Positions 6,219-23,428 of a stretch of 64,000 nt of DNA are shown here, piece by piece. Positions within the stretch are counted from its first letter, which is position 1. The number at the start of each line of letters is the position of its first letter. Source of the DNA: an uncultured Bacilli bacterium (lineage in GTDB: Bacteria; Bacillota_I; Bacilli_A; RF39; UBA660); NCBI GenBank assembly GCA_934098665.1, contig CAKOOO010000001.1, positions 106,752 through 170,751 of the forward strand, in the 5' to 3' direction. Under the pieces are notes generated by a model. That model was given only the letters and a program-made list of their open reading frames with translations, ran no database searches and was not told the DNA's origin. The translations under genes were made by a program, and so were the position numbers.

Positions 6219-6830
6219 TTAATTATTTAAATTATTAAATTCATCAATTGCATCTAAAATTTTATATATACTTGTATGTGGATTTGAATTTAATAAATCA
6301 CCATTATTTTTATTAATTTTTTGTTCGAGAGATTTTGCAGTATTTCTTGCATTATTTGTTAAGTCTTTAATAACTTTATACATATCCATACTTTCTTTAT
6401 AAGTACCATTTAAGTTTTGTAATTCTTTTTTTACATCTTTACTAGTTTGAAAGTTTAATCTATTAGTTCGGTAATGCATAACGTACCATATTTCAAAAGT
6501 TGGAGCTGATGATATTATTTCTATATTATTTTCGATACATTTTTGTTTTATTTCTTTTATTTCATTTATTCGACTTTTACTTAAATCTGTATCCAATACT
6601 AGAAATATTTTATAATTTTCTTCAGAAAGAATATCTTCATTATGAATATATTTTAATAAATCATCTAACATACCTTTAGGGTCAGTACTATTTCCTGTAG
6701 AAAACTGGATTCTTAAGTTTCTATTAGCAAAATTTCTAAAGTAATAATATTCCGAAGATTTTTTCCCACCCTCTGATGAAATGACAATTAAGGGTCTTTT
6801 CTTATTATGTTTTATTTGTCTTCTAGCCAT
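6219..6830 (-). CDS. RloB-like protein (AbiLii-like, TOPRIM-type partner of an OLD-like ATPase)
   Basis: The N-terminus MARRQIKHNKKRPLIVISSEGGKKSSEYYYFRNF matches the RloB signature (basic N-terminus, LIVxxEGxxTExxYF). It overlaps the upstream ATPase gene by 19 nt. Confidence 0.6.
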   Translation of the reverse strand: MARRQIKHNKKRPLIVISSEGGKKSSEYYYFRNFANRNLRIQFSTGNSTDPKGMLDDLLKYIHNEDILSEENYKIFLVLDTDLSKSRINEIKEIKQKCIENNIEIISSAPTFEIWYVMHYRTNRLNFQTSKDVKKELQNLNGTYKESMDMYKVIKDLTNNARNTAKSLEQKINKNNGDLLNSNPHTSIYKILDAIDEFNNLNN

Positions 6831-8068
6831 AGGTCAGTATCTTTTATAAATGGAATTGCTCCGTATCTTCCATTTACATATCCTTTTTGAATATTTTCAT
6901 CTTTTCTTACAGAAAATGAATCAAGTGGATATAAATCTGATATTCCATTTTCAGGATTTTTCTCTGTAAACCAAATTTGATCTCTTCTTAACAATTCCAA
7001 ATTTAATAAATTAATAGCATGAGTTGTAAATATTAACTGACTATTAGCCTTATTTATTTCATTATTATTAAATAATTTAACTATAAATTCTACTAAAGCA
7101 GGATGTAAGCTTTTTTCTAATTCATCTACTACAATAACTTTTGACGTTTCAAACGCTTTTTTTAAAAATGGTGCAAATGCAAACAGTACTTTTGTTCCTG
7201 ATGACTCTTCAATAAAATTTAATTTATATGTATGAGTTACATTTTTATCATCTATAACTTCATGTTCCAGTTCTATATTAAAATTTTTAACTTTTAACTT
7301 TCCTTTTTGATTATCTATTTGTAATGCTAATAAATTATCCACTTCTTTTTCTTCATAATCAACATTAATGTCTTTTATTAAAATATCTGCTTCCTTTAAT
7401 AATTTTAATGCAAATTCTTTTAAATTTTCTTCTTTATTACTATAATCCACTAAATCTTTATCAGCAATACTTTCAAAAGAATCATAGGTATCAATTATAT
7501 TAGCAAACCATAAATAAGCATCTTTTGTTTTGGAATAATTCCAAGTTGTAGCTGTAGATAAAAATAATTTATTTTCAGTATTATTTGTTGATAACGACTC
7601 CAATTTATTTTTATCTATATTAAATTCATAATTATTTGTTTTAGTTCTTTTAAAAATATTAGTAGGTTTTTGGCTATAATAAGCATCTAATACTTCGTCA
7701 TAAATTTTATTTGCATCAGCACTAAAAAAATACCTATACTTAATATTATTTGCTATAAATATAAATTCAAACTCACTTGGTTTATTTTTACTAACTTCAT
7801 CAAATAAGAAAGGTTTTATAAAATTCCATTTACCACCCACGGGTATCAAATTTGAATTTCTAACCATTAATATTGCACAAGTTAGAGCTTTTAATATATT
7901 AGATTTTCCTGAAGCGTTTGCGCCATATATTGCAGCACTTTTAAGTAAAGAAATATTTTCATTAGATATTACATTATCTAAATTTTCTTCTCCACTACCC
8001 TTTTCCATAGATAATGTTACTTTATTTTTAAAAGATAAAAAATTTTTTATACTAAATTCTATAAGCAT
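6812..8068 (-). CDS. AAA-family ATPase (AbiLi-like/OLD-like ABC ATPase)
   Basis: The N-terminus MLIEFSIKNFLSFKNKVTLSM is followed by a Walker A (GANASGKSNILKAL). Walker B/D-loop is VVDELEKSLHP. H-loop is FTTHA. This is the typical partner of RloB. Confidence 0.7.
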   Translation of the reverse strand: MLIEFSIKNFLSFKNKVTLSMEKGSGEENLDNVISNENISLLKSAAIYGANASGKSNILKALTCAILMVRNSNLIPVGGKWNFIKPFLFDEVSKNKPSEFEFIFIANNIKYRYFFSADANKIYDEVLDAYYSQKPTNIFKRTKTNNYEFNIDKNKLESLSTNNTENKLFLSTATTWNYSKTKDAYLWFANIIDTYDSFESIADKDLVDYSNKEENLKEFALKLLKEADILIKDINVDYEEKEVDNLLALQIDNQKGKLKVKNFNIELEHEVIDDKNVTHTYKLNFIEESSGTKVLFAFAPFLKKAFETSKVIVVDELEKSLHPALVEFIVKLFNNNEINKANSQLIFTTHAINLLNLELLRRDQIWFTEKNPENGISDLYPLDSFSVRKDENIQKGYVNGRYGAIPFIKDTDLWLEDK

Positions 8069-10303: not shown

Positions 10304-10340
10304 TCTAAAAAAATCGCTCTTCACAAAAGCGAAGAACGAT
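10304..10340 (-). terminator. Rho-independent terminator of DGR target paralog A
   Basis: Hairpin cgctcttcac-aaaa-gcgaagaacg followed by a T-run on the minus strand (plus-strand A8 at 10305-10312). A homologous hairpin follows paralog B at 13202-13240. Confidence 0.6.
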
Positions 10341-11411
10341 TTATATTCCTAGTCTATAAGGATTAGTTTTACTTCCTGTTCCTCCAGTTACATACACATT
10401 AGATTTTAGATATAAGACTGGCCTAGCCGCGCGACCATAGGAAGCCGAATTGAAGTACAAATTGCCGACGCTAGTCACGGTAAGAGGAATCGAAGAATTA
10501 TGTGCACTCATAGTCCACTCTAAGCCATTTGAAAATAACCAGTTCTTATTCATATAACTTGCTGGGCTTCCAGCACTTCCTAACACTTCAGTAAATCCTT
10601 CTATTGCGTATCCCCAATCACTTGCATACATCAGTCCTATTTTTGAAGTACTTGTTGTATGAGTTGCTATTTCTTGTGTGTAGTAATTATCTGCTGTTTT
10701 ATATGTACTATCTCCTGCTCCTACATTATAGTATACATCTTCTATCATATTTCCATAATAATCACTTGCATCTATTCCATCTGATGAATAGTTACATAAT
10801 CCTACTGCTGATGTACCTGAATGGCAATAACTATCACAAGATGATGCTTTTCCTAAATAACATGTATTAAGTAAATTTTGAATATTACTTCCCATCCATG
10901 TTGAGTTACTTCCATATTTTATTGCTCCTATAGAATCATTTCTTATTAGTTTTACTCTATTTTGAGTTGTTGCACATCCACTTGTTAAGCATACTGGTAC
11001 GTTACCTATTATTCTCCATAATTCATCATTAAACCATACATAATTATTTGGATCTGTTCCTTGATATCTTTTTCCATGTATTGTAGAAGTACCTTTACTA
11101 TCAACCACATTACTTAAATTACTAGCATTTGAATTAAATGAAATATCACACGTTACTGTTCCCTTTATTTTTGTTATTTCTAGTTTCCATGTTTTAGGGT
11201 TCCATACTCCTTTTCCATGTTCACAATTAACACTTACATTATATTTTCCTTTTGATGGAAAAGATGTTGCATCATTTCCATCTACTTTTAAAGCTATAAT
11301 ACTTCCATTATAATTAAATGTTTTAATGCTTTTACTACTTATAACTATAAGTAAAGTAAAACTTATTATTATAAATATACTACATATTATTATTTTTTTG
11401 TTATATTTCAT
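10341..11411 (-). CDS. secreted surface protein, candidate DGR target (paralog A) with a C-terminal variable region (VR-A about 10425-10497)
   Basis: N-terminal signal anchor. The C-terminal about 250 aa are homologous to those of 13241..14899 (WRIIGNVPVCLTSGCATTQNRVKLIRN etc.). It ends with the VR ...NSASYGRAARPVLYLKSNVYVTGGTGSKTNPYRLGI. VR-A is flanked 3' by the GC-rich motif gcggctaggcc. Confidence 0.6.
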   Translation of the reverse strand: MKYNKKIIICSIFIIISFTLLIVISSKSIKTFNYNGSIIALKVDGNDATSFPSKGKYNVSVNCEHGKGVWNPKTWKLEITKIKGTVTCDISFNSNASNLSNVVDSKGTSTIHGKRYQGTDPNNYVWFNDELWRIIGNVPVCLTSGCATTQNRVKLIRNDSIGAIKYGSNSTWMGSNIQNLLNTCYLGKASSCDSYCHSGTSAVGLCNYSSDGIDASDYYGNMIEDVYYNVGAGDSTYKTADNYYTQEIATHTTSTSKIGLMYASDWGYAIEGFTEVLGSAGSPASYMNKNWLFSNGLEWTMSAHNSSIPLTVTSVGNLYFNSASYGRAARPVLYLKSNVYVTGGTGSKTNPYRLGI

Positions 11412-11661
11412 TTAACATCCTTCTTTCTAATAATTTTATTAATTTATATTTTGTATAATAATATAAATAATTATTTTTTTCATATTCTTTTTTTATTTCT
11501 ATTTCTAAATTATTTAATACAATATAATTTATATTATTTAAATTTTTTATATTCTTATATATTAATTTATCTTCATAAAACGTATAATATTTATTATTTT
11601 TTTTAATTAATATTAAATAATATGGATAAATCATTTTTAATACTTTATATCTTTCTTTCAT
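11401..11661 (-). CDS. hypothetical small protein, very AT-rich and of doubtful reality
   Basis: ORF track only. Composition is Lys/Tyr/Asn-rich and no motif was found. Confidence 0.2.
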   Translation of the reverse strand: MKERYKVLKMIYPYYLILIKKNNKYYTFYEDKLIYKNIKNLNNINYIVLNNLEIEIKKEYEKNNYLYYYTKYKLIKLLERRMLNEI

Positions 11662-11822
11662 ATTTATTTTATCTTTAGCGTCTATAGAAAAAATACGTAT
11701 ATTTTTTCGTCCATCTATTATTTTTTAAAAGTTAAAACTTTTAAGGATAATTAATATTTCTTATGCTAACACTTTGTATAGCCTTAACCATATAAATTTC
11801 AAACATAAGAAGTTGCTAAAAA

Positions 11823-11879
11823 AGCCGCGTTCCCGTTAGAAGCATTGTTGCTATTCACATTAAGAGGGTTCGAAGAAGA
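11823..11879 (-). repeat. DGR template-repeat (TR)-like segment
   Basis: Minus-strand reading is tct tcg AAc cct ctt AAt gtg AAt Agc AAc AAt gct tct AAc ggg AAc gcg gct (S S N P L N V N S N N A S N G N A A). It aligns with VR-B (13325-13397) and VR-A (10425-10497). The clear anchor cases are the TR AAC Asn codons matching TAC in VR-B, in the motif A-S-N-G-N versus A-S-Y-G-Y. It shares the GC-rich gcggct end, then diverges (TR gcggcttttttagc versus VR gcggctaggccagtc), as IMH* versus IMH would. Confidence 0.55.
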
Positions 11880-11910
11880 CTCCTTTTTAAAAATAATTAC
11901 CCTAATATAT

Positions 11911-12408
11911 TTAATAATATCTATTTATAATATGTTTTAATTTATCTTTGTTTACAAAATTATAACTATGTTTATAATTTTGTATTGAATAAAAATATTT
12001 TTTTATATCTATTTTAAGTGCATATATATTATTAATTTTATGTTTTAATTTTTCAATATTATATAGTAATAAATTAATAGCATATGTTAGTCCCATACCT
12101 TTTCTTGTTGCAGTAATTTCTTTACATAAATATTTTGATAATTTTGGGATTAATATATATTTTGCTACATAATGATTTATTACTTTATTAATTATATTTT
12201 CACTCATTACAACTCTTATTTTAGGATCTTTTACTAAAAATATATTATAATTACTTTTAATATATAAATTATTTTCAAGTATATATTTAATATAAATTAA
12301 ATACTCTATTTTATATTTTTCAAATGCAAGAATTTTCTTTCTATTTTTCACTCCTTTCAATATTTCATTATTATATATATCTAATAAATCATTTATTATT
12401 ACTATCAT
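11911..12408 (-). pseudogene. DGR-type reverse transcriptase, N-terminal fragment (finger domain plus motifs 1 and 2) truncated before motif 3
   Basis: 165 aa. It matches the DGR RT N-terminus and motif 1 (FLVKDPKIRVVMSENIINKVINHYV, compare Bordetella bRT FLVYEPKPRLISALEFKDRLVQHAL) and motif 2 (LKIDIKKYFYSI, compare LKSDFSKFFPSI). A stop follows motif 2 by 20 codons and no YxDD lies downstream in any frame. The TR-like segment follows immediately. Confidence 0.6.
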
Positions 12409-12730
12409 GCTCTATCTTATTATCCATCCACTTATTACACATTTTATTTATTTCACTTAACTTATAAGTAACTTTTTTTAAATTACTTTCACTAATATAA
12501 TGTTTAATAAATATTCTTTCTAATATATAATCTATAACACTAATAAATGAATTTATTTCTACTTTATATATAGATATATTTTTATAATTATTTTCATTAT
12601 TAACTTTATTTATAAAATATAATAATTTTATAGATAATTCTTTTAATTTATCTTTATAAAAATAATCTTTTTTAGGTATATTTTCTATTAAATTTATTAT
12701 ACTTTCTAAATTTTTCCATAGAACATTTAT
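12389..12730 (-). other. open frame of 113 codons lacking an ATG/GTG/TTG start; possible Avd-like accessory gene remnant
   Basis: Manual translation of the minus strand from 12730 to 12389 reads INVLWKNLESIINLIENIPKKDYFYKDKLKELSIKLLYFINKV...ILERIFIKHY...KIEHDSNNK with no stop. It is helical, roughly the size of Avd, and lies between the RT fragments. It overlaps the RT N-fragment start by 20 nt in another frame. Confidence 0.2.
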
Positions 12731-12742
12731 TTAATTTATCTA

Positions 12743-13114
12743 TTAAAAAATCCACTTTTTTTTATCTAAATTTTTAAATGACATATCTAAATATTTAGAA
12801 TAAGTATTTATTTTACCAAAGTCTTTTATTAAAGGATCTTTATCTACATCTATAATTTGATAAGATATTTTAGCATCAGATAAAGTATTAATAACTTTAT
12901 TTATTGATGTATCAGGAAAACCTGATACTCCACCTTTCAATACTTTATAACCAAATAAAGTATTCATAATATAAACATCAATATTTTTACATTGATAAAA
13001 TTTGCCATGATTTTTAAAAATTATTAAAAATGATTTATCATCATGTTTTACATCATTAGATGTATAGCACTTTACACTTTTATCTATACATTTTGGTGTA
13101 TCTACCTCCCAGTT
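12743..13114 (-). pseudogene. reverse transcriptase C-terminal fragment (motif 7-like LFGYK plus thumb), located upstream of the N-terminal fragment
   Basis: The ORF-track 74-aa ORF (12743..12967) extends without stops up to 13114: NWEVDTPKCIDKSVKCYTSNDVKHDDKSFLIIFKNHGKFYQCKNIDVYIMNTLFGYKVLKGG.... NTLFGYKVL matches RT motif 7 (FLGYR in bRT). The 67 aa after it match the length of the bRT thumb. HDD may be a degenerate YxDD. Confidence 0.35.
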
Positions 13115-13201
13115 TTACATTATTTTTACTTTTATTAAACATTTTCAAATCTAAAACTTCCTTTCTACTTTACATTGAAAATGTAATATTTACATTTTAT
13201 C

Positions 13202-13240
13202 AAAATCGGCTTCACAAAGCGAAGCACGATTTTTTATTTT
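13202..13240 (-). terminator. terminator hairpin of DGR target paralog B
   Basis: tcggcttcac-aaa-gcgaagcacga, homologous to the hairpin after paralog A. Confidence 0.5.
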
Positions 13241-14899
13241 TTATATTCCTAGTGTATAAGGATCAGTTTTACTTCCAGTACCACCAGTTTTATATACATT
13301 AGATTTTAGATATAAGACTGGCCTAGCCGCGTACCCGTAAGAAGCATTGTGGATGTCCAAATAGCCGTCGTAGTAGACGTTAAGAGGGGATGAAGAATTA
13401 TATGCACTCATTGTCCACTCATATCCATTTGAAAATAACCAGTTCTTATTCATATAACTTTCTGGGTTTCCACTTCTTCCGAGTACTTTAGTAAAACCTT
13501 CTATTGCGTATCCCCAGTCACTTGCATACATTAAGCCTATTTTTGAAGTTGCACTTGCATAACTTGCTATTTCTTTTGTATATTGGTCATCTGCATTTAC
13601 ATATGAAGCGCTTGATGGTACTCCTACATTGTAGTATACATCTTCTATCATATTTCCATAATAATCACTTGCATCTATTCCATCTGAAGAATAGTTGCAT
13701 AATCCTACTGCTGATGTAGAATATGAATAACAATAACTATCACATGAGGATACTTTTCCTAAATAACATGTATTTAGTAAATTTTGAATATTACTTCCTA
13801 TCCATGTAAATGGACTGGATGAGCTAAAGGCAGTTTGATTAAATGCTATTGCACCTATTGAATTGTTTCTTATTAGTTTTACTCTATTTTGAGTTGTTGC
13901 ACATCCACTTGTTAGACATACTGGTACGTTTCCGATTATTCTCCATAATTCATCGTTATACCACACATAGTTATCTGGATCTGTTCCTTGATATCTTATT
14001 CCATGTGTTGTACTTGTCCCTTTTGTATCTACTATAGTAGAAAGTAGCTCACTATTTGAGGGTGTTTTTTGAGTAAATGATATATCACAGTTTACAAAAT
14101 CTGACCAATTAGATATAACTAAACCATTTAATTTATTATCCCATACTGCACTATTTGTTCCACTGCAATTTGTTATACTTTTTGTATATCCTGATAAAAG
14201 GTATGCTGGAGTTGCAACATTTACTGTTACATCTTTTTCTGGTGGAAGAGGATCTCCCATTGTACATTTTGCATTAGTAACTCTATATTTACCTTTAAAA
14301 GTTTTATTTGCTAGTGCTGACTGATCTAAATCTAAATTATAAAATCTATTTGTAAAATTCCATGTTTGTTTTTTATCTTTATTTGAGGAAGAGTTTGCTA
14401 TAACTGCACCACTTACTATAGTTGCAGTTGTAGTGGTTAAATTAAAGTTTTTTTCTTCCACATAATTATTTGTTCCTGTATTTGGACCTTTTGCCTCTAA
14501 AGTAAGTTCTTTTGTTGCTCCACTTGTAACAGGCGTAGGACTTTTTCCATAAATACTTGAATCACTATCATAAGTAAATGTAATATCATATGTACAGCTT
14601 ACTGAATATTCTTCACTACCTGATATTAAAGATACTACTAAAGAAGATGTATTTTCCGCTACATAATTATCTCTATTACTTTGACTCATACCTTTAGGGT
14701 CAATTGTTAAAGCAAAATCAGCATTTGTTACATCTAAAATAGAGTTTGCTAAATTTTTTGCAGCTATATTAACATTTGCTTTATTTGAAATATCCACTAA
14801 AAAATTACCAATATATGCAAATGCCACTGATACTACAAGTACAATTAATACTACAGATATTATAATAGTTTTAATATTTTTCTTATCTAATTTTTTCAT
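13241..14899 (-). CDS. secreted protein, candidate DGR target (paralog B): TasA/camelysin-like N-terminal region with a SipW-type signal, fused to the diversified C-terminal domain (VR-B about 13325-13397)
   Basis: The N-terminus MKKLDKKNIKTIIISVVLIVLVVSVAFAYIGNF resembles the SipW-cognate signal. Residues about 30-230 are homologous to 48674..49351 and 55080..55748. The C-terminal about 250 aa are homologous to paralog A. VR is ...SPLNVYYDGYLDIHNASYGYAARP with Tyr codons where the TR has Asn. Confidence 0.6.
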   Translation of the reverse strand: MKKLDKKNIKTIIISVVLIVLVVSVAFAYIGNFLVDISNKANVNIAAKNLANSILDVTNADFALTIDPKGMSQSNRDNYVAENTSSLVVSLISGSEEYSVSCTYDITFTYDSDSSIYGKSPTPVTSGATKELTLEAKGPNTGTNNYVEEKNFNLTTTTATIVSGAVIANSSSNKDKKQTWNFTNRFYNLDLDQSALANKTFKGKYRVTNAKCTMGDPLPPEKDVTVNVATPAYLLSGYTKSITNCSGTNSAVWDNKLNGLVISNWSDFVNCDISFTQKTPSNSELLSTIVDTKGTSTTHGIRYQGTDPDNYVWYNDELWRIIGNVPVCLTSGCATTQNRVKLIRNNSIGAIAFNQTAFSSSSPFTWIGSNIQNLLNTCYLGKVSSCDSYCYSYSTSAVGLCNYSSDGIDASDYYGNMIEDVYYNVGVPSSASYVNADDQYTKEIASYASATSKIGLMYASDWGYAIEGFTKVLGRSGNPESYMNKNWLFSNGYEWTMSAYNSSSPLNVYYDGYLDIHNASYGYAARPVLYLKSNVYKTGGTGSKTDPYTLGI

Positions 14900-17628: not shown

Positions 17629-18774
17629 CTAATTTATATTTAAATTATTTTCATTTAATTTTTTATTATTATTTTTCATTCTTATAAGTAATAATGTTAT
17701 ACCTATTATTAAAACAATAATAATTACATTTAATGCACATATTAACCATATATTTGGCATATTAGATTTAGAAATATTTATTATATAACTTTGACTTTCA
17801 GTTCCATCAGTTATCTTTATTTCTATTTTGCTATTGTTTTTCAATTTTTCATTTCCAATTATTTCATAAGTTAATTTGTCATTATCATTTTCAATATTAA
17901 TATCTAGTTTATCTTCGTTATTTATTTTTAAAGTATAATTATAGTTATTTCTATAATAATTTAATATATATCCATTTACACTAATATTTTTAAGTGAAAT
18001 ACTTTCTTTACAAATAGACTCTTTTTTTACATTTAAAGTGTATTCTTTTACTTTATTATCTTCAGCTGTAACTTTAATAATAATTTTATTTTCTCCAACT
18101 TTTAAGTTTTCATTTCCGATTATTTCATATGTTGCTTTGGCATCATTTAGCGTTATATCAAGTTTTAATTTATCTACGTTTTCAGTTAATGTTAGATTAT
18201 ATTCTAAAGTATCTTTTTCAAAGTTGAAATCTTTTATTTCTTTTATACTAAATGTTTTAATACTTGCATCACTACTTTTTTGTGGTGTTGTTGTTTGAGG
18301 ATTTGATGGTTGGGGATTTGATGGTTTAGGACTTGGCGTAGGTGTTGGAGTTGGTTCTGGTGTTGGAGTTGGTTCTGGTGTTGGAGTTGTTTCTGGTTTA
18401 TTTGTAACAGTTACTGAAGCACTTCCTGAAACATTTACAGCATTTCCATCATTTGCACTTGTTACATCTCCAGAAAGTGTAAGAGTTATTGTTCCAACTC
18501 CTGTAGATGTACAAGTAACTGGAAATGATTTACTTGTATCAAGTGCATCTAATGTAGCATCAGCTATATCAAGTTTGCAACCACTTACAGGTCCTGAAGA
18601 AGCAACATGTAAATTCCACGCTGCTGCTTCATTCATATTTACATATGCTGTAAAGCTTTCACCTGAATATATGCTACTTGAACTAACTGTTAAACTAGCA
18701 CTTGCAGCATATACATTTAAGCTAACTATTAAAAATGATAATATTCCAGTTAAAATTAATTTTAATTTTTTCAT
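17629..18774 (-). CDS. cell-surface protein with a signal peptide, Ig-like N-domain, Pro/Thr linker, cadherin-like beta-sandwich repeats and a C-terminal TM anchor
   Basis: Linker TTPTPEPTPTPEPTPTPTPSPKPSNPQPSNPQ. Repeats of the type KTFSIKEIKDFNFEKDTLEYNLTL...ATYEIIGNENL. C-terminal TM is IWLICALNVIIIVLIIGITLLLI followed by basic residues. It lies 13 nt downstream of the dockerin protease. Confidence 0.6.
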   Translation of the reverse strand: MKKLKLILTGILSFLIVSLNVYAASASLTVSSSSIYSGESFTAYVNMNEAAAWNLHVASSGPVSGCKLDIADATLDALDTSKSFPVTCTSTGVGTITLTLSGDVTSANDGNAVNVSGSASVTVTNKPETTPTPEPTPTPEPTPTPTPSPKPSNPQPSNPQTTTPQKSSDASIKTFSIKEIKDFNFEKDTLEYNLTLTENVDKLKLDITLNDAKATYEIIGNENLKVGENKIIIKVTAEDNKVKEYTLNVKKESICKESISLKNISVNGYILNYYRNNYNYTLKINNEDKLDINIENDNDKLTYEIIGNEKLKNNSKIEIKITDGTESQSYIINISKSNMPNIWLICALNVIIIVLIIGITLLLIRMKNNNKKLNENNLNIN

Positions 18775-18787
18775 TTTTTTATCCTTT

Positions 18788-21700
18788 CTATCCTATTAAT
18801 TTTGTTCCTATCAAATGTTGTCTTATTCTAAGTAAGTCTGCAGAATTTACTGTGTTATCATAATTTATGTCTGATGCTGTAAAATATATTCCATTAAGTG
18901 GTTTTACCCCAATTAGATGTTGTCTTATTTTAAGTAAATCAGCTGAATTTATTATACCATCGCCAGTAATATCACCAGTAACTACATTTGTAAATTCCTT
19001 AATTAAGCTACCAGAATCATATATTCTTGTTTTAGAACCAGTATAAATTAAATTATTTGATGAATCAACAGTTACACTATAATTATCTCCAAGTCTAATA
19101 TGATTTTTAAAATTACTTTCAGTTGTTCCAACAATTATCTTATTAATTGTATTACTATTTTCATCAACTGAATAATCATTTATTGAATATGTGAAACTTG
19201 ATTTAAATATTGGATATAAAACTAATTCTTTTTCTAAAGTTATTTCATTTCCTATGCTATATTTTTGACCAGTACCATCTACTTTTGTATTCCAAGAGTC
19301 AAAATAATAACCAGCCATTTCAATAGTACAATTTTCAATTTTAATAGTTTGTCCAATTTCATATTCTTTTTCATTTTTGTTTGTACAACTATCATCTAAA
19401 CAATATATAATTTTAACTTTAATTTTTTCCCATTGAGCATATAAGGTTATATCCTCGGTAATGCTTATCAATTGTTCATCTTCATAAGATACACCCGTTC
19501 CATCTGCTTTAGTATTCCAATTTTTAAATATATAATTATCTCTTGTAAATATATTTTTAGATAAATTAGCACTCACATTTTTTATTAGTTCCATATTTGG
19601 CATATTACCAATACCTTGGTTTGGATTAAACGTAATTGTATATTTTTCTTCTTTCCATTGTGCATGTAAGGTTATATTATTTTGTTCATCAAATGGAATA
19701 TTATCAAAAATTATAGAATCACTTGATTTTGCAGAAAATTTTATTCCTGTTCCGTCTTGTTTAGTGTTCCAGTTATCAATATAATAATTTTCTTTTGAGA
19801 AATCTAAATTTCCAAATGAAATAGTTCCTTCACTAGGATAAGTCATAGTCAAATCAACTGTTTTATTATTATTTGATGTCACACCATTTCCATCAAATGT
19901 TATTTTATATTGATTTTCACTCCAAATTGCATATAATTTCAAATCTTCATTTATTCCACTTTCAATTAATTGCTCATCATAATATACTATTCCTGTACCA
20001 TCTGCTTTAGTATTCCATTCTTTAAATGTATGACCTTTATATGTAAATAAGTTTTTAACCAAATTAAACTTTCTATTAATAGCAACATCTTGTGAACTTT
20101 CTTCATTAGATGGATTGTTGCTATTAAATGTAATTGTTTTTGCTTCCATTATTGTAACCTGTATATCATCTTTATAACCATCATACAAACTAGTTATATG
20201 AATTGTCGTTACACCAATTTTCTTTGGAGTAATGACACCCGATGAACTAATAGTTAAATACTCATCATCATATGTCCATTTAATGTTCTTTGCATTATTA
20301 GTATTTGGGAAAATTAAATCATATATATTCTTTGCTTCCGAAATTTTCATTTCAAAATCATCAATTGTTTCAGTGAAGTCAAATTTATCCAGTAATGTTG
20401 TTAATATAGGAAATCTTTTATAACCGTCAATTTCTGGTTGTGTCCATTGTGACTTATGTTCAAAATAATTTGCGTAATTGTTTGCTATTAAATCATCTAA
20501 TGTTACAGCAGTATTATTATTAATCGTTTCAGTACCATTTGATGTAATTTTTCCATATAATTTGTTTTCATTTGTATACCATACACCACTTATATTTACC
20601 GAATTAGTTTGATTAATATAGCCAACAGCTGCACCTAATCTAGTTGCTACTTGTGTTTTATAACTACCAGCACTTATAGCGTTATTTATAGTAAGATTAT
20701 TTACTAAACCACTATCACCAACTATGCCTCCGATAGCACTATCACCAAGTGAGCCATTACCACTCACTTTGCTATAACTTGCTGAGTCACTAATTGTTAC
20801 GTTAAGTTTTTGCCCTTCAGCAACACCAATTATTCCTCCGGCAAAAACTGTATCTATGTTACCAACACTTACATTCGAATACAAATTGTACATATTACAA
20901 TTTACATTTTTAGTAACTGCTTTTGATACATTTATACCTCCTATTAATCCACCATTATAGTATGATGAATTAACTTTACCGCCAATAGCAGATACATTAT
21001 TAATTTCTATTTCATCTGTTATAGATATTGTACCAGCCAATGCACCAGCATCTAAATAACCATTAATATTTACATCTTTTATTATCAAATTTTTTATGTA
21101 ATTATTTTTTCCATAAATATTTCCAAATATTCCAACTGGGTCTTTACCTATATCTTTTGGTCTATTTATGTATACACCACTTATCACATGATTATTTCCA
21201 TTAAAGCTTCCATAAAAATCACTAATTGGTAACCATCCAGCACCAGAATTATAAAATAATCCTTTTGTATTAGTTGTATCATATGATAAATCTAAATCAT
21301 TAGTTAGCACATAATGATTATCTTTTGTATTTAAATTTCTTAATCCATTTAAATCGGATGCAGTTTTAATTTCATAGGGATTTTCTTTCGTTCCAATACC
21401 CAACATTTTATTATTATGTTTCGTTAGTTTCCATTCAATTTTATCATATTTTTCATTATTATAATAAACCTCAACTGTATATGTACCTAATTTCACATTT
21501 TCACTATTATATGATAAAAGTGCGTTAATATAATTAGAAACAGAATAATTTCTAAATACATGAAATAAATTTGTAACATCTTCATTATTTTGATTCAATA
21601 TTTTAAATGTTAAATTATCATTTGATGATAAATTTCTAGAAACTCCTGAAACAACAAATACATTATTATCATCAAAAGTTACTGTATGTGGATCTGAAAT

Positions 21701-23428
21701 ACATTTGTTATCATCTAAAGTACATTTAGTCAAGATTTTTTCACTTGTTGATCTAATATTTGTTAAATCAATAAATTTATCTTCACCAACATTACTTGTA
21801 TGAATAGAGCCGTAATAATCATATTTAATATTATCTCCTTTGAATGTTAATTTAAACTTTTCTGTATTTTCATCTAGAACTATATTGTTTTCTGAAATAT
21901 CAATAGTGTAAAGTCCTGGTTGAGAATATGTTTGAGATTTTAATAATTCATAACTTGAAACATATTCATAATCTGAAACAATTACTTCATTATTTCGATA
22001 ATAAACATATATAGTTTTATTGTATGAATTAACAAAAAATTTAACTTTTTTTAATAATTCTTTTGTATTTCCTTTTGTAAATGTAGTATATTGTCCAGTT
22101 GCTCTATAAGAATTGTCATAATCTACTTCACTTACATTAGTTATACTACTATAAGAACTTTTCATTGTATTATAAGGTAAGTATATAAAAGTATCATTAT
22201 TTCCCCATGAATTTTGTATTATCCATGCCCCATTTATCGTATATAAATCACCTTTAGTACAAGAATAATTATTTCCTACCTTTGTAGCATTAGTTATTTC
22301 AAAATCTGTTTTATTTAAACAAATATTATGTGTATAATTATCATCCCACCCAATTACTGAAACTGCGTGGTTCATTCCTGAACTAGGATTCCATTTATAA
22401 GGTACATAATATATAACATTTTTTCCATCAGTATTTAATGCTTTTTCTGTTCCAGTTGGTATATATTCTACCGATAAATTTGTATAAGCTCCAACAGAAA
22501 CATGTATAGAACCATTATTAACAATTTGCTCTTTTAAAAGATTTACTAAAGCATCGACGTCAGACTGATTATTGGTTGATAGCGGATTAAAAAATAGAAA
22601 TTCATTTAAACTATATTCAGTATTATCTATATTTGTGATTTCAAATGGTGAAAGTTTAGAAGTATAATTATAATCATACTTCCAATATTTATTGCTTTTT
22701 ATATTTTTATCGCTATTGTAATTTGTTCCAGCACTACAATTTCCAGCGCACAAAACTGGAGAAATACCAATTGCTGTTGAATTAGCAAATCTTAGCATAT
22801 TTCCGCCCTCATTTAGGTTGTCACCTATAACTGGACTATTATTATATAAAAATGGGTTACTACCTGCATCAATTGAATTTAAGTCTTTAGTAGTTGCATA
22901 ATCTATTTGTTTTTCAGAAAAAGTTAACATTTTAGTTTTGTTACTTTTTATAGCTAAATGGCTTTCCAAAGAAGTTGCTGAAGAAAAGGCCCAACATAAC
23001 CCCTCAGAACCTTGGTTATAAACATTTGTAATATAACCATCATCTCTTAAATTATAATATGATAATGATGTTTTTTCATTGGAATCACCTTGTTTAGTTA
23101 AAACATCATTTTTATATGAATGTTCTATTATATATATTTCTGGAATATAACCATATTCACTACTCTTACCATTTTTTAAATATTCAACATAATCAGGATT
23201 TAAGTATGGCTCTTCATCTTCCTTATTCTTTTCAGTTAAAATAATTTCACCAGTTTCATTATAAATATCCTCAATATATTTTTTAGCTTCCATAGGAAGA
23301 TAATTATAACTTTCTGATTTTAATACTCTTTCTATTTTATTAGAGCTAAAATGTTTAAATAATATAAAAGTACCTATAACCAAAACCACACTAAAAAATA
23401 AAACGATTTTTTTTACACAACTTCTCAC
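18788..23428 (-). CDS. giant (1546 aa) secreted papain-like (C1) cysteine protease with GLUG/beta-helix region, Listeria-Bacteroides (Flg_new) repeats and a C-terminal type I dockerin
   Basis: The C1 active site is QGSEGLCWAFSSATSLESH. His is in NHAVSVIGWDDN and Asn in IIQNSWGN. GTKENPYEI is followed by Gly-rich GLUG-like repeats (AGALAGT, GGLIGGI, FAGGIIGV). There are four repeats of the type YTITFNPNQG...FKNWNTKADGTGVSY. Dockerin duplicated segments are GDITGDGIINSADLLKIRQHL and SDINYDNTVNSADLLRIRQHL. Confidence 0.8.
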   Translation of the reverse strand: MRSCVKKIVLFFSVVLVIGTFILFKHFSSNKIERVLKSESYNYLPMEAKKYIEDIYNETGEIILTEKNKEDEEPYLNPDYVEYLKNGKSSEYGYIPEIYIIEHSYKNDVLTKQGDSNEKTSLSYYNLRDDGYITNVYNQGSEGLCWAFSSATSLESHLAIKSNKTKMLTFSEKQIDYATTKDLNSIDAGSNPFLYNNSPVIGDNLNEGGNMLRFANSTAIGISPVLCAGNCSAGTNYNSDKNIKSNKYWKYDYNYTSKLSPFEITNIDNTEYSLNEFLFFNPLSTNNQSDVDALVNLLKEQIVNNGSIHVSVGAYTNLSVEYIPTGTEKALNTDGKNVIYYVPYKWNPSSGMNHAVSVIGWDDNYTHNICLNKTDFEITNATKVGNNYSCTKGDLYTINGAWIIQNSWGNNDTFIYLPYNTMKSSYSSITNVSEVDYDNSYRATGQYTTFTKGNTKELLKKVKFFVNSYNKTIYVYYRNNEVIVSDYEYVSSYELLKSQTYSQPGLYTIDISENNIVLDENTEKFKLTFKGDNIKYDYYGSIHTSNVGEDKFIDLTNIRSTSEKILTKCTLDDNKCISDPHTVTFDDNNVFVVSGVSRNLSSNDNLTFKILNQNNEDVTNLFHVFRNYSVSNYINALLSYNSENVKLGTYTVEVYYNNEKYDKIEWKLTKHNNKMLGIGTKENPYEIKTASDLNGLRNLNTKDNHYVLTNDLDLSYDTTNTKGLFYNSGAGWLPISDFYGSFNGNNHVISGVYINRPKDIGKDPVGIFGNIYGKNNYIKNLIIKDVNINGYLDAGALAGTISITDEIEINNVSAIGGKVNSSYYNGGLIGGINVSKAVTKNVNCNMYNLYSNVSVGNIDTVFAGGIIGVAEGQKLNVTISDSASYSKVSGNGSLGDSAIGGIVGDSGLVNNLTINNAISAGSYKTQVATRLGAAVGYINQTNSVNISGVWYTNENKLYGKITSNGTETINNNTAVTLDDLIANNYANYFEHKSQWTQPEIDGYKRFPILTTLLDKFDFTETIDDFEMKISEAKNIYDLIFPNTNNAKNIKWTYDDEYLTISSSGVITPKKIGVTTIHITSLYDGYKDDIQVTIMEAKTITFNSNNPSNEESSQDVAINRKFNLVKNLFTYKGHTFKEWNTKADGTGIVYYDEQLIESGINEDLKLYAIWSENQYKITFDGNGVTSNNNKTVDLTMTYPSEGTISFGNLDFSKENYYIDNWNTKQDGTGIKFSAKSSDSIIFDNIPFDEQNNITLHAQWKEEKYTITFNPNQGIGNMPNMELIKNVSANLSKNIFTRDNYIFKNWNTKADGTGVSYEDEQLISITEDITLYAQWEKIKVKIIYCLDDSCTNKNEKEYEIGQTIKIENCTIEMAGYYFDSWNTKVDGTGQKYSIGNEITLEKELVLYPIFKSSFTYSINDYSVDENSNTINKIIVGTTESNFKNHIRLGDNYSVTVDSSNNLIYTGSKTRIYDSGSLIKEFTNVVTGDITGDGIINSADLLKIRQHLIGVKPLNGIYFTASDINYDNTVNSADLLRIRQHLIGTKLIG

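Follow-up and report, generated by a model that had tools for sequence, protein, structure and literature searches.

A 64,000-nucleotide (nt) stretch of contig CAKOOO010000001.1 from an uncultured Bacilli bacterium, referred to below as the window, carries what is in all likelihood a decayed diversity-generating retroelement (DGR). Our reading is that a chromosomal cassette made up of genes for a MutS-like protein (MSL), Avd and a reverse transcriptase (RT), together with a template repeat (TR) and two flanking target genes, no longer diversifies its targets, and that the variable regions (VRs) of both are frozen. All coordinates are those of the window, and every gene of the cassette is on the minus strand. 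Read 5′ to 3′ on that strand, the order is target B, a remnant of an accessory gene that we call acc1, a frame derived from the Avd gene, an RT remnant, the TR, ~160 nt of non-coding sequence, a small open reading frame (ORF86) and target A (Table 1). A first-pass annotation of these letters had proposed a DGR at this place. Membership of the family holds, since intact relatives carry RT, Avd and TR, but the window copy itself is a relic with broken machinery.

The broken cassette and its intact relatives

The frame described in the first-pass annotation as a DGR-type RT between the two targets is indeed RT-derived, however, it is only a 165-aa remnant with no YMDD. A tblastn search with the intact RT of the related locus L007, along with DNA alignment to L007, L008 and L010, showed the loss of motifs 4–7, YMDD among them, and of most of the thumb. 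In intact RT genes, two copies of the 16-nt repeat AAAAATATTTTTATTC lie at a distance of 567 nt from each other, the first within motif 3 (IDIKKYFYSI) and the second close to the C-terminus (FEKYFYS); one copy is left in the window, and it marks the deletion junction. The deletion in the window spans 567 nt, or 189 codons, is in frame and takes away both YMDD aspartates. Because motifs 4–7 and these aspartates are deleted, we infer from general RT enzymology that the product is unable to polymerize. A functional DGR is expected to encode an RT with a complete catalytic core (motifs 1–7, YxDD), which is found in L007 and L009–L012 and is absent from the window, where tblastn with the L007 RT located no second RT anywhere in the 64 kb. 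Comparison of the window with the locus L087 gave 7 nonsynonymous and 5 synonymous codon changes, too few to judge selection. An alternative genetic code was considered as the reason for the short RT and rejected, as the stop is TAA and the adjoining genes read normally in translation table 11. The locus L001, whose RT (P0045) is the sole RT protein in the database with a complete C-terminus, was used only for recognizing the C-terminal repeat. In L001 a GC-rich, unrelated 701-aa gene is joined to an RT that differs in its first ~75 residues and is without the usual N-terminus, at 2x coverage (2500–2840); chimeric assembly, or recombination of the cassette, may be the reason.

Both accessory genes are broken as well. 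The frame at 12743–13114, which had been taken for a further piece of RT, turned out to be a truncated accessory gene resembling MutS domain I. The acc1 family to which it belongs aligns with an ORF of locus L029 that matches Pfam MutS_I (E 6e-9). In the window, acc1 homology without a start codon reaches upstream to ~13084, and the frame stops at KNLDKKKWIF*, where the sister allele L099 reads through. The Avd frame has no ATG, GTG or TTG start and ~25 N-terminal residues are gone. The L010 Avd (127 aa) to which it aligns matches bAvd (PF22296, E 9e-7) and DivGenRetAVD (NF033474, E 5e-7) over its full length, at scores below the curated cut-offs. In L099, a deletion between two LIEN-coding repeats has fused the 3′ end of acc1 in frame to codon ~27 of Avd. 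The window carries this fusion plus two frameshifting indels, and it is because of these added indels that acc1 stops early and the Avd frame is left without a start.

The TR, which encodes SSNPLNVNSNNASNGNAA, is the third, shorter copy rich in Asn codons that had been noticed beside the RT frame; we place it at 11823–11876, where 7 of 18 codons specify Asn. It is 18 nt shorter than both local VRs and than the TRs of relatives (72 nt), and the 18 nt absent from it fall between repeated AAC codons. When the TR was compared with the VRs, as the first-pass annotation had proposed, mismatches fell preferentially at TR adenines (Fisher p 0.012 and 0.016 for the two VRs). However, only 15 of the 27 mismatches (56%) lie there, and the TR is 18 nt short, so the window departs from the pattern of a functional DGR, in which TR and VR are equal in length and nearly all mismatches are at TR adenines. 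A better fit of VR-A to the TR of L008 than to the local TR was looked for and rejected, with 14 mismatches at non-adenine positions.

The RT fragment retrieved a family of proteins and, from species-representative genomes, >400 related loci. The latter come from metagenome-assembled genomes (MAGs) recovered from humans and animals and belonging to uncultured gut Bacilli, "Tenericutes" and "Mycoplasma sp. CAG:472". Judged by names such as "Mycoplasma sp. CAG:472", the host lineage is RF39-like. The nearest representatives with an intact RT are L007, L009, L010, L011 and L012, which are 83–91% identical to the remnant over its retained 144 residues. Where contigs are long enough to read it, the relatives have a common architecture consisting of a target of ~570 aa, acc1 (101–147 aa), a 127-aa Avd, an RT of 353–354 aa with YMDD, a TR that begins ~30 nt past the RT stop codon, a non-coding RNA, an 89-aa ORF and a target of ~375 aa. 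Their RT matches Pfam RVT_1 with E 5.6e-16, and the best match of the L010 RT in the PDB is the Bordetella bRT (8ub7, E 3.5e-13). In L010, L011 and L012, the TR and both VRs are equal in length and align without gaps, with 65 of 68 core mismatches (96%) at TR adenines. Because these relatives pair intact RT, Avd and TR with adenine-specific VR mismatches, we conclude from the sequences that the cassette family is a genuine DGR of known architecture.

Several features tie the window copy to this family by descent. Its TR, its GC-rich motif and the RNA 3′ of the TR align with those of the relatives, and the gene order is identical. The VR is placed in the C-terminal part of a protein with a C-type-lectin fold. 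The motif GCGGCTAGGCCAGTC, which resembles an initiation of mutagenic homing (IMH) site, is confined in the window to the 3′ ends of the two VRs; the TR has GCGGCTTTTTTAGCAAC in its place, diverging after GCGGCT, as would be expected of the altered counterpart (IMH*) in a DGR. The earlier observation that divergent VRs are each followed by an identical GC-rich motif was borne out by a count of GACTGGCCTAGCCGC, which has exactly 2 occurrences in the 64 kb (10416–10430 and 13316–13330) with 0.01 expected by chance.

The two targets, 10341–11411 and 13241–14899, were correctly recognized in the first-pass annotation as paralogs with homologous C-termini, as their 3′ ends have ~775 nt in common at 83% identity. 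A terminator-like hairpin does follow each of them, as it had stated. A TasA/camelysin-like, SipW-type N-terminus for target B could not be upheld, as Pfam and NCBIfam gave no match with E ≤1 and 56 homologues did not yield one either; the PDB sequence searches with the target proteins and these homologues likewise gave no match. The full-length structure model of target B is poor (predicted local distance difference test, pLDDT, 42), and Foldseek with this model returned generic beta-sandwich matches only, with template modeling (TM) scores ≤0.41. The modeled variable domain has a C-type-lectin fold and resembles TvpA, TaqVP and Lcl. GC content rises to 44–45% in the VR regions, compared with 25% for the window and 6–20% for the cassette between the targets (100-nt windows). 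The interval 11300–13200, with its extreme AT-richness, also holds many short direct repeats and homopolymers, and it is probably because of these that the cassette has suffered repeat-mediated deletions and frameshifts.

Table 1. Coordinates of the cassette features in the window, listed from target B to target A
Feature	Coordinates	Strand	Remarks
Target gene B, 552 aa	13241..14899	minus	N-terminal membrane anchor, beta-rich N-terminal module, then the C-terminal variable domain common to both targets
VR-B core, 72 nt	13325..13396	minus	Against TR: 18-nt gap, 7 mismatches at TR adenines, 5 elsewhere
GC-rich IMH-like motif GCGGCTAGGCCAGTC, 3′ end of VR-B	13316..13330	minus	
Terminator-like hairpin 3′ of target B	13209..13225	minus	
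acc1 remnant, MutS-domain-I-like (MSL type), 74 aa from ATG	12743..12967	minus	Aligns to the 101–147-aa acc1 of relatives
Avd remnant, 113-codon frame	12389..12730	minus	Aligns to residues 18–127 of L010 Avd
RT remnant, 165 aa	11911..12408	minus	RT residues 1–144 joined in frame to ~321–354
Deletion junction, single copy of AAAAATATTTTTATTC	11987..12002	minus	DNA alignment with intact relatives
TR core, 54 nt, encodes SSNPLNVNSNNASNGNAA	11823..11876	minus	7/18 codons are Asn
Conserved structured RNA 3′ of TR	11680..11812	minus	Alignment A5 of 16 loci
Small conserved ORF, 86 aa (ORF86)	11401..11661	minus	Between TR and target A; same position in all relatives examined
Target gene A, 356 aa	10341..11411	minus	N-terminal membrane anchor; C-terminal C-type-lectin-fold variable domain
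VR-A core, 72 nt	10425..10496	minus	Against TR: 18-nt gap, 8 mismatches at TR adenines, 7 elsewhere
GC-rich IMH-like motif GCGGCTAGGCCAGTC, 3′ end of VR-A	10416..10430	minus	
Terminator-like hairpin 3′ of target A	10314..10332	minus	

The RNA that lies 3′ of the TR is conserved in structure. RNAalifold on the 16-locus alignment gave 31 pairs, 22 of them with compensatory changes, and 96% of cells were paired versus 42–47% with partners slid. The predicted fold consists of a long-range stem around the GGTTAAGGCTA hairpin (11757–11812) and a second domain at 11680–11718, in which a 9-bp stem is capped by a UACG tetraloop (11687–11708). It is kept across the 16 loci at RT identities down to 45–60%. 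An invariant GGTTA(A/T)GGCTA hairpin lies within this RNA, which is still intact in the window despite the dead RT. An Rfam scan of the locus assigned no family; the plastid group II intron scored 25.8 bits versus 55.2 required, which we took as chance. Handa et al. (10.1101/2023.10.23.563531) described an Avd-binding stem-loop 3′ of the TR in 207 of 278 Avd-containing DGRs, and the stem-loop predicted here matches their class of Avd-binding stem-loops just downstream of the TR. ORF86, which follows the RNA, has no match in Pfam or NCBIfam, and the idea that it is a relative of the MSL-like acc1 family was dropped when hhalign gave no significant alignment (probability 2%).

Probably frozen variable regions and the case for decay

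The VRs of the window are shared among samples without change. L088 and L089, found in other samples, match the window at 100% identity over both VRs and the TR, while they differ from it at 30 and ~60 sites, respectively, in the adjoining tsf/rpsB. VR-B is identical in L088, L089, L099, L100 and L101. The exact 356-aa target A was found on at least 9 contigs from 8 samples, in Hadza and other cohorts; for the 552-aa target B, an exact copy is carried by at least 6 contigs, which come from several samples. In the 90% cluster of target A (4 members), the N-terminal half is 2–5% diverged and the last ~150 residues, including VR-A, are identical. The first-pass annotation had said beforehand that invariant VRs in related genomes would speak against its claim, and across assemblies the VRs are invariant while neighboring housekeeping genes vary. 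Variation of the VR between samples around a constant TR, the behavior expected of a functional DGR, is thus not seen in the window. A diverged allele of target B (P0053, 92% identity) has a different VR with Tyr/His/Asp/Asn-type replacements, which are a trace of earlier diversification. As a positive control, we used the L016-type target family, which has an intact RT next to it; among its 117 near-identical proteins, nearly all differences fall at discrete positions of the VR. Because VR variants are abundant in this family, the database does capture DGR variation where it is present.

A second dead-RT lineage, L103–L112, comprises 24 contigs that have the same 567-nt deletion plus an extra frameshift. 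Only two VR alleles occur in its 10 samples, and either can be found in either of the paralogous targets (432 aa or 364 aa). Such swapping suggests exchange between paralogs by gene conversion, not mutagenic homing. The TR of this lineage has lost several adenines and differs from the TR of L008 mainly by A-to-N changes, as if it had been overwritten or eroded. Further RT lesions, verified in DNA, are a 5-nt duplication in L008 and a ~32-nt deletion in L002–L006. On long contigs, RT ORFs are variously truncated to 95–220 aa (P0006, P0011, P0057–P0064); the ORFs of 95, 106, 114, 119 and 133 aa in their own 90% cluster were judged from protein ends only. Together this suggests that the RT of this species complex was inactivated several times independently. 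We speculate, and consider it possible though rather doubtful, that repeated independent knock-out of the RT reflects selection that "locks in" a successful VR, after which exchange between paralogs is the sole source of variation and targets, TR and RNA persist.

The anatomy, the lesions, the adenine specificity of the relatives and the invariance of the VRs across samples were read from the sequences themselves. On this basis we propose the following sequence of events, with the homing mechanism taken from established DGR biology (PMC6182149; 10.1101/2023.10.23.563531) and the order of the lesions our own deduction. In intact relatives, the TR and its 3′ structured RNA would be transcribed and assemble with RT–Avd, which would then reverse-transcribe the TR and misincorporate opposite adenines. 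The resulting cDNA would take the place of the 72-nt VR in each membrane-anchored target, at the C-terminal tip with its C-type-lectin fold, with the direction of homing set by the GC-rich IMH-like motif that is present in the VRs but altered in the TR. The outcome would be a surface protein with a varied ligand-binding face. In the window, recombination or slippage between the two 16-nt direct repeats took out 567 nt of the RT, a second deletion fused the MSL and Avd genes, with the frameshifts coming afterwards, and the TR became 18 nt shorter. Since the RT core is gone, the accessory genes are broken and the TR is shortened, the VRs of the window are now frozen records of past homing that change by ordinary point substitution and possibly by exchange between paralogs. 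Both target proteins of the window are now fixed-sequence surface proteins.

Some observations weigh against this reading. The window brings 64 kb of the genome into view, and a second, intact DGR elsewhere is possible; in the MAG CAKONK01, a broken cassette (L008) coexists with an intact one (L010). Metagenome assemblies give a consensus, in which low-frequency VR variants within a sample are invisible. The mismatches of the window are still enriched at adenines (Fisher p ~0.01 per VR), which records past activity and leaves the inactivation undated. Decay is also incomplete, as the RNA element, ORF86 and both target ORFs are still intact. The adenine enrichment, the MAG with two cassettes and the preserved TR, IMH-like motifs, RNA and target ORFs could be read to mean that the DGR is active. 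Diversification of its VRs would then continue, with the 165-aa RT remnant as the enzyme or with an intact RT and Avd acting in trans from elsewhere in the genome. We regard this as very unlikely. The remnant is without the YMDD aspartates and motifs 4–7, the local Avd is truncated, and homing from a TR that is 18 nt shorter would shorten both VRs. Independent assemblies show no difference in either VR, and at least 8 samples contain the exact proteins next to genes that do vary, whereas a relative with an intact RT has abundant VR variants in the same database. Supply in trans is further contradicted by L008 and L010, whose VRs each match the TR of their own cassette and not that of the other.

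It could also be argued that the breakage is an artifact of assembly or sequencing and that the true genome has an intact cassette, given that a region with 6–20% GC and homopolymers is prone to indel errors and misassembly. However, the same 567-nt deletion, frameshifts and short TR are present in L087, L088, L089 and L090–L101, independent assemblies that differ in sample and in assembler. A 16-nt direct repeat bounds the deletion, which keeps the reading frame, and the diverged lineage L103–L112 shares this deletion along with a frameshift of its own, making an artifact highly improbable. At the other extreme, the locus might be no DGR at all, but two diverging paralogs next to a chance AT-rich ORF that is weakly RT-like. 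In line with this, the window ORF matches Pfam RVT_1 only at a sub-threshold E of 1e-3 (profile positions 7–90 of 205), and 44% of the TR/VR mismatches are at non-adenine positions. Against it, the ORF has 83–91% identity over 144 residues to intact 354-aa RTs, these RTs sit in the same gene order with Avd, TR and adenine-specific VRs, and the GC-rich motif and TR copy are far beyond chance; we give this explanation almost no credence. A decayed DGR with frozen VRs is the reading that we retain.

Neighboring genes, known systems and significance

The neighborhood of the DGR is rich in surface proteins. At 17629–23428 on the minus strand, upstream of a P-type ATPase, are two large predicted surface proteins of 381 aa and 1546 aa; the former has a Pro/Thr-rich linker, and its L089 allele matches Cadherin-like. 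At 6219–8068, also on the minus strand, the gene for a 418-aa AAA_21 ATPase overlaps one of the RloB family (203 aa) beside tsf (the Pfam assignments were made on identical L088 genes), and the pair looks like a two-gene defense-type module.

Among described systems, the cassette is closest in layout to the MSL-containing DGRs that Wu et al. (2018, Nucleic Acids Res 46:11, PMC5758913) grouped as "Architecture D", in which MSL co-occurs with avd and of which the Legionella DGR is an example. As in Architecture D (whose avd-RT-TR core order is that of B2), a small MutS-like accessory gene occurs together with Avd and RT, the TR comes after the RT, a single strand carries all of these and targets flank them. 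Unlike Architecture D, the cassette has two targets, one per side, and a conserved 86–96-aa ORF separates the TR from the second target; the cassette is hosted by an AT-rich lineage of uncultured gut Bacilli, and in the window RT, Avd and MSL are all broken.

The prototype DGR of Bordetella phage BPP-1 (mtd-avd-TR-brt; bRT-Avd-RNA structure PDB 8ub7, 10.1101/2023.10.23.563531) provides a second comparison. Its bRT is the best solved homologue of the relatives' RT, and the two systems have in common an Avd homologue, a C-type-lectin-fold protein that bears the VR at its C-terminal tip, a GC-rich IMH where the VR ends on its 3′ side, altered in the TR, and a UNCG-capped stem-loop directly 3′ of the TR. 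The differences are that in our family the RT precedes the TR, that the cassette is chromosomal and not phage-borne, that it has two targets and an MSL gene, and that the window copy cannot reverse-transcribe. Loss of function has a precedent in Treponema denticola, where strains retain DGR targets without RT and TR (Nimkulrat et al. 2016, PMC4891356). Both cases represent inactivation or loss of a DGR within a species, with formerly variable targets that persist. In T. denticola, however, the RT/TR core is wholly absent, whereas in the window the wreck is still in place and its deletion, fusion, frameshifts and short TR can be read.

DGRs, their MSL and Avd accessories, C-type-lectin-fold targets, Avd-binding stem-loops and strain-level loss of DGRs are already known, and the general understanding of DGRs is unchanged by this locus. 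What is new is a case of decay resolved in detail, and the host clade; a literature search for DGRs in RF39 turned up no report. The locus provides a clean, readable example of the death of a DGR, with population data showing that the VRs froze afterwards. It also serves as a practical warning for DGR finders, since activity is not proven by the presence of a TR/VR pair together with an IMH-like motif and an ORF that resembles RT. Taken together, the intact relatives make up a large clade of MSL- and Avd-containing DGRs in RF39-like gut Bacilli, and could serve comparative work on the DGR ribonucleoprotein.

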